This document shows, piece by piece, positions 35,620 through 36,835 of a stretch of 64,000 bases of DNA. Every line of letters starts with the position of its first letter. Positions within the stretch are counted from its first letter, which is position 1. Origin of the DNA: Escherichia phage fDHCT2; sequence record OR427838.1; one strand, given 5' to 3'. The notes below the pieces were generated by a model. That model was not told the origin of the DNA, did no database searches, and saw only the letters and a list, made by a program, of their open reading frames with translations. A program made the translations under genes and the position numbers.

Positions 35620-36039
35620 TTATAGGTCTTCTAATGAGAACGTATCTTTGAAAAGTTTGTTAACAACCAGGGCTATCACATCCCCATGACAGTCCTTAGG
35701 TTTACAGGTACACGCTATTCGCATACCTCTAAGGGTTTCAAGGTGTTCTCTTTTAATTTCACCTGATTTTATTTTAGCAATAAAGTATTCTTTAAAGTTC
35801 TTGATGTTTTCCTCACGAGTCCCATCTTTAAATGGATTACCCCACATAGTTCCACGTTGGATGTTTACATCAAAATCTTCTTTATACTTGTTAACAACTC
35901 TACAGACTCTCATTATAGCACCAAATTCAGTCCGACCATAATAACCAAAAACAGAGTACAGATTATTTGAATTTTCATACAGCCATTTTAGCCTTAATGG
36001 TAGGGTGTGATTCGTAACCAATGAGTTTAAAATCTTCAT
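35620..36039 (-). CDS. Hypothetical protein (139 aa), conserved GNPF/Cys-His motifs
   Basis: Long ORF overlapping the td 3' end by 65 nt in another frame (alternative start ATG 35913, 97 aa); motifs MWGNPF and CTCKPKDCHGD. Confidence 0.45.
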   Translation of the reverse strand: MKILNSLVTNHTLPLRLKWLYENSNNLYSVFGYYGRTEFGAIMRVCRVVNKYKEDFDVNIQRGTMWGNPFKDGTREENIKNFKEYFIAKIKSGEIKREHLETLRGMRIACTCKPKDCHGDVIALVVNKLFKDTFSLEDL

Positions 36040-36835
36040 GGACCATATGCTCTGTTACCCAATGAAGCTGTAATGTCGTGCTCCAATCAGAGAATCCTTC
36101 AGGCCAATTAATTTCCAGTTCACACAGTTCTTTAGGTTCACGACGAAGAACTTCCTGGCATTGTTCAACGTGGTTAGAATAGATGTGCGTATTGCCGCCT
36201 GAGAACACTAAATCGCCAGGAATAAGATTACACATCTTAGCTACAATATGCACAAGAGCGGCGTAAGAGGCGATATTAAATGGCAATCCTAAGAACACGT
36301 CAACAGAACGCTGATACCATTGAAGGTCAAGATGACCATTACGAACGTTGAACTGGTAAAAACAATGGCATGGCGGAAGAGCCATCTGGTTAATTTCAGA
36401 TGGGTTCCACGCGGATACGATTTGACGTCGGTCGTTAGGCATCTTTTTAATGCGGTCGATGATTTCTACAACCTGGTCGACACCACCAAAATCTCGCCAT
36501 TGTTTCCCGTATACCGGTCCGAGTTCACCACTATGATAGCCTAGGTCTTTAGCCTGGTTTTCATAGTTCTCGTCCCAAATAGTTTTACCACCAATTAACG
36601 AACCGTGAGTACGGAAACGAAGGTCATTAACATTAGTCGAACCTGAAAGGAACCAAAGGAGCTCAGCAATACAGGCTTTCCATGCTAATTTTTTAGTTGT
36701 TACTGCCGGGAAGCCTTGAGTTAAATCGAAACGTAATTTAGTACCGAACAGTGCAATTGTACCTGTGCCTGTGCGGTCGTCAGTTTCGTAGCCGTTTTCA
36801 AGGATATCTTTAATTAAAAATTGGTATTGTTTCAT
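35975..36835 (-). CDS. td: Thymidylate synthase (intronless)
   Basis: 286 aa continuous ORF; catalytic-Cys region ALPPCH; T4 Td is also 286 aa but is intron-interrupted in T4. Confidence 0.95.

Follow-up and report, generated by a model that had tools for sequence, protein, structure and literature searches.

In the record of phage T4, the thymidylate synthase gene td is interrupted by an intron carrying I-TevI, and nrdB, which encodes the beta subunit of the class Ia ribonucleotide reductase (RNR), by one carrying I-TevIII; two further homing endonuclease genes (HEGs), mobE and segG, lie respectively between nrdA and nrdB and between genes 32 and 59. A preliminary description of a 64,000-nucleotide (nt) stretch of Escherichia phage fDHCT2 (sequence record OR427838.1; this whole 64-kb stretch is hereafter termed the window) had named these T4 elements, correctly as the T4 record shows, and had proposed that the same genes are free of them here. 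The locus raises the question of whether its intron and endonuclease sites were never invaded or were once occupied and later healed, and of what stands in the place of the missing genes. We are very confident that the window represents an uninvaded baseline: td, nrdA and nrdB are each one continuous open reading frame (ORF) that needs no splicing, no HEG is found in the 64 kb, and this condition is the default of the lineage.

The window derives from a T4-type phage of the genus Dhakavirus (JS98-like). An 8-kb query around td and nrdB shows 93–94% nucleotide identity to JS98, JS10 and MN04, and also matches dhaeg and other members of the genus. Nearly all ORFs of the window have a colinear T4 orthologue, in an order that runs from hoc (about 110.2 kb in T4) through rIIB to rIIA (about 1.9 kb in T4), and each such orthologue is a single colinear ORF. 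Gene-by-gene comparison and blastn show the window to be colinear with JS98 too.

Continuous genes and nucleotide-exact empty insertion sites

The td gene (35975–36835, minus strand) encodes 286 amino acids (aa) without interruption. Its product covers the entire Pfam Thymidylat_synt model PF00303 (1–266 of 266; 328.3 bits, E 3.9e-98) and the whole of TIGR03284 (1–296 of 296; 311.8 bits against a cutoff of 108.35), which places it in the ThyA family. Identity to the T4 exons is 75–77% at the nucleotide level and about 79% at the amino acid level in an ungapped comparison. The T4 td intron, 1017 nt long and carrying I-TevI, is placed after td nt 549, where exon 1 ends in TTCTTGGGT and exon 2 begins with CTACCGTTTAAT. 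Exact alignment to T4 puts the empty td insertion site of the window between 36287 and 36286 (minus strand), where the junction is continuous. The peptide spanning the site is identical in the window and T4; at the DNA level 11 of the 39 positions from -27 to +12 differ, all of them synonymously. I-TevI has a 38-bp site, cuts at -23/-25 and prefers a CXXXG motif (PMC2988022). At 36309–36313 (minus strand; -27 to -23) we read CAGCG (CAACG in T4), which retains the CNNNG form of an I-TevI cleavage motif and places the G at the natural distance, -23. The td gene may accordingly be viewed as a plausible I-TevI recipient site.

The nrdB gene (31276–32415, minus strand; 379 aa, uninterrupted) is likewise one ORF. 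Its product matches Ribonuc_red_sm of Pfam and aligns with NF006576 over 4–373 of 376 positions (495.7 bits, cutoff 346), identifying it as a class Ia RNR beta subunit. The nrdB intron measures 598 nt in T4 and 1088 nt, with a full-length I-TevIII-like ORF, in Bp7; in both phages it lies between TCTTTTGCGT and GTACCTTTAAC. Alignment to T4 and Bp7 locates the empty site of the window between 31779 and 31778 (minus strand), again with a continuous junction. Only 3 of 57 positions around it are unlike the T4 exon junction (GAAGC to GGAAA, spanning the site), and nrdB would appear to offer a good I-TevIII recipient site. Finally, nrdA (33298–35553, minus strand), encoding the RNR alpha subunit of 751 aa, is a single uninterrupted ORF with 88% amino acid identity to T4 NrdA over 751 aa, unlike the nrdA of 236Ecol005PP, within which a mobile endonuclease is lodged.

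None of td, nrdB and nrdA therefore shows the interrupted ORF of a gene with a group I intron: all three are single ORFs, and for td and nrdB the alignment with the T4 exons is continuous over both sites. That alignment had been proposed in the preliminary description as the means of finding the empty sites, and it did so; the intron-like insertion that would have spoken against continuous td and nrdB genes is seen at neither junction, and both genes give full-length family matches as single ORFs.

Searches for introns and homing endonucleases

The blastn queries were the td and nrdB introns of T4, the nrdB intron of Bp7 and the intron-bearing nrdD gene of T4; their best match in the window had an E value of 0.19. 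Rfam scans called for more care. The null result at the Rfam gathering threshold was discarded as evidence, because the same scan also fails to report the real introns of T4 and Bp7, and such nulls cannot be used as evidence against group I introns in phages. The three introns concerned (td and nrdB of T4, nrdB of Bp7) score 36–40 bits against an Rfam cutoff of 50, probably on account of their large ORF insertions. At a permissive setting that detects both T4 introns (td and nrdB; 40.3 and 35.7 bits, E 9e-8 and 2e-6), no Intron_gpI (RF00028) match was obtained in the whole window at E<=1, nor in 30500–40800 at E<=10.

For endonucleases, tblastn of the window with all 15 T4 HEGs (I-TevI to I-TevIII, SegA-G and MobA-E) and two from Bp7 returned nothing below E 0.3, while the internal controls T4 DenA and T4 Dam were recovered at 8e-72 and 1.4e-29; the MobE homologue of LHE83 found nothing below E 0.79. 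Six-frame hidden Markov model (HMM) searches with profiles of the seg/I-Tev GIY-YIG and mob/I-TevIII HNH groups hit only denA (E 0.04) and motA (E 0.04, chance level). As independent positive controls the profiles recovered an I-TevI-like ORF of CF-SP2 (1e-24) and the endonuclease in nrdA of 236Ecol005PP (3.5e-32). No nuclease domain was found by Pfam or PHROGs in the ORFs that have no T4 orthologue. Within the window, then, neither the GIY-YIG HEGs (I-TevI, I-TevII and SegA-G, queried with nine T4 members and one Bp7 member) nor the HNH HEGs (I-TevIII and MobA-E, by tblastn and six-frame HMM) are represented. Five of the 15 T4 HEG loci fall in the syntenic span, namely segE, the nrdB intron with I-TevIII, mobE, the td intron with I-TevI, and segG, and an endonuclease occupies none of the five here. 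The inh-uvsW spacer, which carries segE in T4, measures 55 nt (1540–1594), and the spacer between genes 32 and 59, which holds an HEG in T4 (segG), Bp7 and LHE83, measures 89 nt (39895–39983, minus strand).

Three ORFs were considered as HEG candidates and rejected. The GIY-YIG match at 30835–31272 (minus strand; PF01541 at 23 bits, phrog_1111 at E 3.4e-64), which might be taken for a seg gene, is the orthologue of denA, encoding endonuclease II (EndoII); it lies 4 nt downstream of nrdB and is 74% identical in amino acid sequence to T4 DenA. The low-GC ORF of 267 aa between nrdA and nrdB, a potential mobE- or seg-like gene, encodes a D12 methyltransferase. A 201-aa ORF at 25805–26410, of HEG size and with no T4 orthologue, proved to be a phrog_5804 member of unknown function, and no nuclease domain was found in it; its counterpart at the same position in JS98 is orf212.

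These results bear out the earlier claim that no GIY-YIG or HNH homing gene adjoins nrdA/nrdB, td or gene 32 as far as HEGs are concerned, with the qualification that denA, right beside nrdB, does encode a nuclease of the GIY-YIG fold, albeit EndoII. The description of the region as intron-free also holds, since all the named elements are missing and segE with them; what it left unmentioned is that the mobE slot is occupied by a methyltransferase gene. A different HEG, Hef of phage U5, reportedly replaces mobE between nrdA and nrdB. From the sequence, Hef appears to be absent from that usual site here, because the sole ORF of the spacer matches the D12 methyltransferase family over nearly its full length (residues 13–249 of 267).

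How ordinary the intron-free state is

Published counts of HEGs stand at 15 for T4 and 0 for both JS98 and JS10 (Petrov et al. 2010, PMC2993671), and T4 has been described as an oddity for encoding 15 of them (Edgell et al., PMC2988022). In our census of a phage collection the 8-kb region matches 973 records, the nrdB intron query 129 and the td intron query 260; most T4-like records are without these introns. Of the 30 records that match best, only Bp7 (two records) and LHE83 list any endonuclease besides denA; the 27 others list none. Given these published counts and the census, the state free of introns and HEGs is the norm of the lineage, and one already published for JS98-type phages (PMC2993671), a point that the preliminary description overlooked. 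By itself the observation is thus of little importance: the phage serves, like other JS98-type phages, as an uninvaded baseline against which the introns and HEGs of T4 can be read. The nucleotide-exact empty sites (td 36287/36286, nrdB 31779/31778), however, make invasions visible in close relatives such as Bp7.

A methyltransferase cassette in the nrdA-nrdB spacer

The sole locally mobile feature of the region would be a divergent Dam-like N6-adenine DNA methyltransferase cassette of about 830 nt (32429–33257, minus strand; boundaries from alignment and blastn), which sits in the slot that mobE occupies in T4 and mobE-type genes in other phages. Its ORF (32451–33254, minus strand; 267 aa, with alternative start codons at 33245 or 33242) lies in a region of low GC content (0.343 in 32001–33000). 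The protein belongs to the D12 class (Pfam D12 MTase PF02086, 71.8 bits against a cutoff of 22, E 9.8e-20), and both the catalytic DPPY motif (IDPPYL) and the FCGG motif of the FxGxG S-adenosylmethionine-binding type (DAFCGGLGF) can be read in it. In the PDB it comes closest to T4 Dam (E 5e-29), to which it is about 31% identical; it scores 67.6 bits with TIGR00571 (Dam, GATC), below the cutoff of 114.85. PADLOC, run on the methyltransferase, nrdA.1 and the 201-aa ORF, returned generic methyltransferase models only. The nrdA-nrdB spacer of JS98 has 52 nt and no cassette. Directly upstream of the cassette junction and just past the nrdA stop stands a promoter-like site (TTGTAA-18-TATAAT) followed by a hairpin TGACTCATGGATGAGTCA (33263–33310, minus strand; hairpin -8 kcal/mol, z = -2.07), which is kept in JS98 and whose function is putative. 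An imperfect short repeat, TAACAAA(A)TG, is present at both cassette junctions.

The protein is found in 8 of 50,697 phage records (>=80% coverage, >=60% identity), and the cassette occupies the same junction in at least three genera: Dhakavirus (the window), Gelderlandvirus CF-SP2 (93.5% nucleotide identity) and Tequatrovirus-type phages such as 236Ecol005PP (79%). In the Salmonella phage CF-SP2 (locus 5600–8650), the first 600 nt of nrdA are 97–100% identical to Salmonella phage S16, a phage with an nrdB intron and a mobE-like gene in this region; from there on, across the cassette and as far as the 5' part of nrdB, the sequence is 85–100% identical to the window (32000–34900). CF-SP2 is a chimera in which an intergeneric recombination tract of about 2.9 kb, carrying the cassette, replaced the mobE-like gene of S16 type. 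Within Dhakavirus alone the spacer is empty in JS98, holds a MobE homologue in LHE83 and the methyltransferase cassette in the window, so that a single genus shows this hot spot in several states. The LHE83 gene (2952–3593) is full length, encoding 213 aa with 61% identity to T4 MobE. The C-terminal part of its product aligns with T4 nrdB.1, which is annotated separately, and this suggests that mobE/nrdB.1 of T4 may be a split version of an LHE83-type gene.

Such a distribution invites the thought that the region is not free of mobile elements after all, the cassette itself being a selfish or hitch-hiking element of a non-classical kind that competes with mobE/hef-type genes for the site. Its absence from the 52-nt spacer of JS98, its low GC, its sporadic occurrence at one and the same junction across at least three genera (those 8 records) and its transfer into CF-SP2 within a Dhakavirus-like tract that displaced S16-type sequence, mobE-like gene included, are all in keeping with this thought. 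We nonetheless regard it as unlikely: the cassette has no nuclease, recombinase or terminal repeats beyond the short TAACAAA(A)TG repeat, and ordinary homologous recombination with selection for methylation would explain its spread. Recombination through the conserved nrdA and nrdB flanks, together with selection, is the simplest account. The phage vB_Eco_BGP carries both the cassette and the nrdB intron; the methyltransferase is therefore no obvious block to intron entry, I-TevIII-type invasion is not excluded by it, and the idea that it shields against the nrdB intron is weakened. That the cassette is an orphan methyltransferase module moving between T4-type genera at the exact mobE/hef slot seems to us quite unlikely; if true, such a module might displace mobE/hef-type genes or alter the vulnerability of the neighboring nrdB target.

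Naive or healed sites: the evidence of Bp7

The invaded state can be studied in Bp7. Its nrdB intron, with a full-length ORF of 268 aa, is 98.8% identical to that of T4 over the shared 598 nt, whereas its exons are only 77–82% identical to T4; between Bp7 and the window, nrdB exon 2 shows 95.8% identity. At the sites where the window and JS98 agree with each other and differ from T4, Bp7 is T4-like only at about nt 500–660 of nrdB and Dhakavirus-like elsewhere; the T4-type exon polymorphisms extend from about -137 to +23 of the insertion site (Bp7 locus 3277–5542). This T4-type tract of about 160 nt is a clean trace of co-conversion within a gene that is of Dhakavirus type elsewhere. Because the intron is so close to that of T4 while the exons are not, and T4-type polymorphisms surround the site alone, the pattern marks a recent lateral entry of the nrdB intron into Bp7. 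The tract stands out against the allele shared by the window and JS98, so that the use envisaged for the window in the preliminary description, inferring where mobile elements entered, proves workable.

The same interval bears on the history of the window itself. Throughout nt 500–660 (approximately) of nrdB it has the Dhakavirus-type alleles of JS98 and no T4-type tract, and these shared alleles around the site favor a gene that was never invaded over one that was healed. The alternative is secondary loss, in which one or both introns of td and nrdB, or mobE/segG, were once present in an ancestor and were then removed precisely, as might happen through recombination with a relative free of introns; the sites would in that case be healed and not naive. 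The ingredients exist: introns and HEGs do occur in the genus, in Bp7 (the nrdB intron and an HEG between genes 32 and 59) and in LHE83 (a mobE-like gene and an HEG between genes 32 and 59), and recombination among these phages is frequent, as the CF-SP2 chimera exemplifies. Yet the nrdB site lacks the kind of T4-type tract that Bp7 retains and has JS98-type alleles instead, 27 of the 30 best-matching records list no endonuclease besides denA, and the published JS98-type genomes are without HEGs (PMC2993671), so that we consider such a loss highly unlikely. An ORF-less or highly divergent intron, or an HEG of a novel family, elsewhere in the window has next to no probability: the blindness of the Rfam gathering threshold even to the T4 introns and the presence of several ORFs of unknown function would leave some room for it, but the T4 orthologues of the window are without exception colinear and made up of one ORF each, the permissive Rfam search found nothing at E<=1 where the T4 controls reached E values of about 1e-6 to 1e-7, and the ORFs of unknown function outside 59333–60814 lie in sequence common to the HEG-free JS98.

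Several considerations do weigh against our view of an uninvaded baseline. The window covers 64 kb of a genome of about 170 kb, and HEGs may lie elsewhere in the phage; the HEG query set was without a Hef-type reference sequence; and one or other of the ORFs of unknown function, such as 25805–26410, could be an HEG of a family not yet recognised, although in that instance the counterpart orf212 occupies the same position in JS98, which is reported to be HEG-free and would make a hidden HEG there less of a concern. An ancient, precise loss of introns is also compatible with the sequence, and whether I-TevI would cut the td site is uncertain, 11 of its 39 positions being unlike T4.

With these reservations, the uninvaded baseline suggests the following picture. 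The load of introns and HEGs in T4 is the exception, gained by lateral homing events, and the window retains the target sequences: the nrdB site is nearly the T4 junction, and the td site has the same peptide and a CNNNG motif. Because these targets remain, the phage would probably act as a recipient upon co-infection with an intron-carrying relative.

Neighboring genes and further departures from JS98

On the minus strand, rnlA (29690–30838) precedes denA and nrdB in the coordinates of the window, and nrdA.1/DUF4326 follows nrdA. The longest ORF of nrdA.1 (35620–36039, minus strand) shares 65 nt (35975–36039) with the 3' end of td; its true start is probably an internal codon, since the family match begins only at residue 21. 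The start of td overlaps the stop of frd (36832–37413, minus strand) in an ATGA arrangement (36832–36839), the same as in T4, whereas in JS98 the two genes are separated by about 198 further nt (144218–144415) that the window lacks. The frd.x ORFs follow toward gene 32 (38989–39894, minus strand) and gene 59 (39984–40637, minus strand). Near the other end of the window, inh (868–1539, minus strand) and uvsW (1595–3091, plus strand) flank the segE-position spacer.

Other segments depart from JS98. Three tandem paralogues of Alt-like ADP-ribosyltransferases (707, 682 and 694 aa) occupy 11754–18014 on the minus strand, compared with two in JS98 and one in T4; within the middle copy and the third, 14061–15197 and 16775–17244 are without nucleotide match in JS98. 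A cd.1 homologue at 25240–25578, 55% identical in amino acid sequence to T4 Cd.1, is not in JS98. Parts of gp34 and gp37, together with the gp38 adhesin (51936–52724, Pfam GP38), find no nucleotide match in JS98 (44642–45828, 48182–51888 and 52013–52735); they are host-range modules of the tail fibre that have been exchanged in comparison with the nearest relatives. The same is true of 1.5 kb around denB (59333–60814), with a divergent denB (59976–60569) and a DUF7418 ORF (60553–60822); tandem phrog_2390 paralogues (59073–59333 and 59330–59593) lie just upstream of this stretch and at its start. The denB gene is the homologue of T4 endonuclease IV, not a homing enzyme. The ORFs scanned in the segments absent from JS98 (alt paralogue, cd.1, cassette, tail fibre and denB region) showed no homing-endonuclease domain.

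Comparison with known systems

The closest counterparts of the window are JS98 and JS10, Dhakavirus members that share its nucleotide sequence at 93–94% identity, its gene order, its continuous td, nrdA and nrdB genes and its short empty spacers at the segE and segG positions. Relative to JS98, the window alone has the methyltransferase cassette, the third alt paralogue and the cd.1 homologue, and it differs in its tail-fibre tips and in the denB region, which has been replaced. T4 resembles the window in its orthologous host genes, their order, the identical peptide at the td site and the nearly identical DNA at the nrdB site, but it has all five elements, and its mobE position is taken in the window by the methyltransferase gene. 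T4 Dam, a GATC N6-adenine methyltransferase (PDB 1YFJ, 1Q0S), shares with the cassette protein the D12 signature, the DPPY and FCGG motifs and a similar length, but it is encoded at the 56-dam-61 position, whereas the cassette gene, at roughly 31% identity, stands between nrdA and nrdB. Bp7 is of the same genus as the window and is set apart by its nrdB intron, its co-conversion tract and its HEG at the segG position. LHE83, also a Dhakavirus, has the same flanking genes, but its MobE homologue replaces the whole spacer, whereas the window has kept the JS98-type spacer and added the methyltransferase cassette to it.

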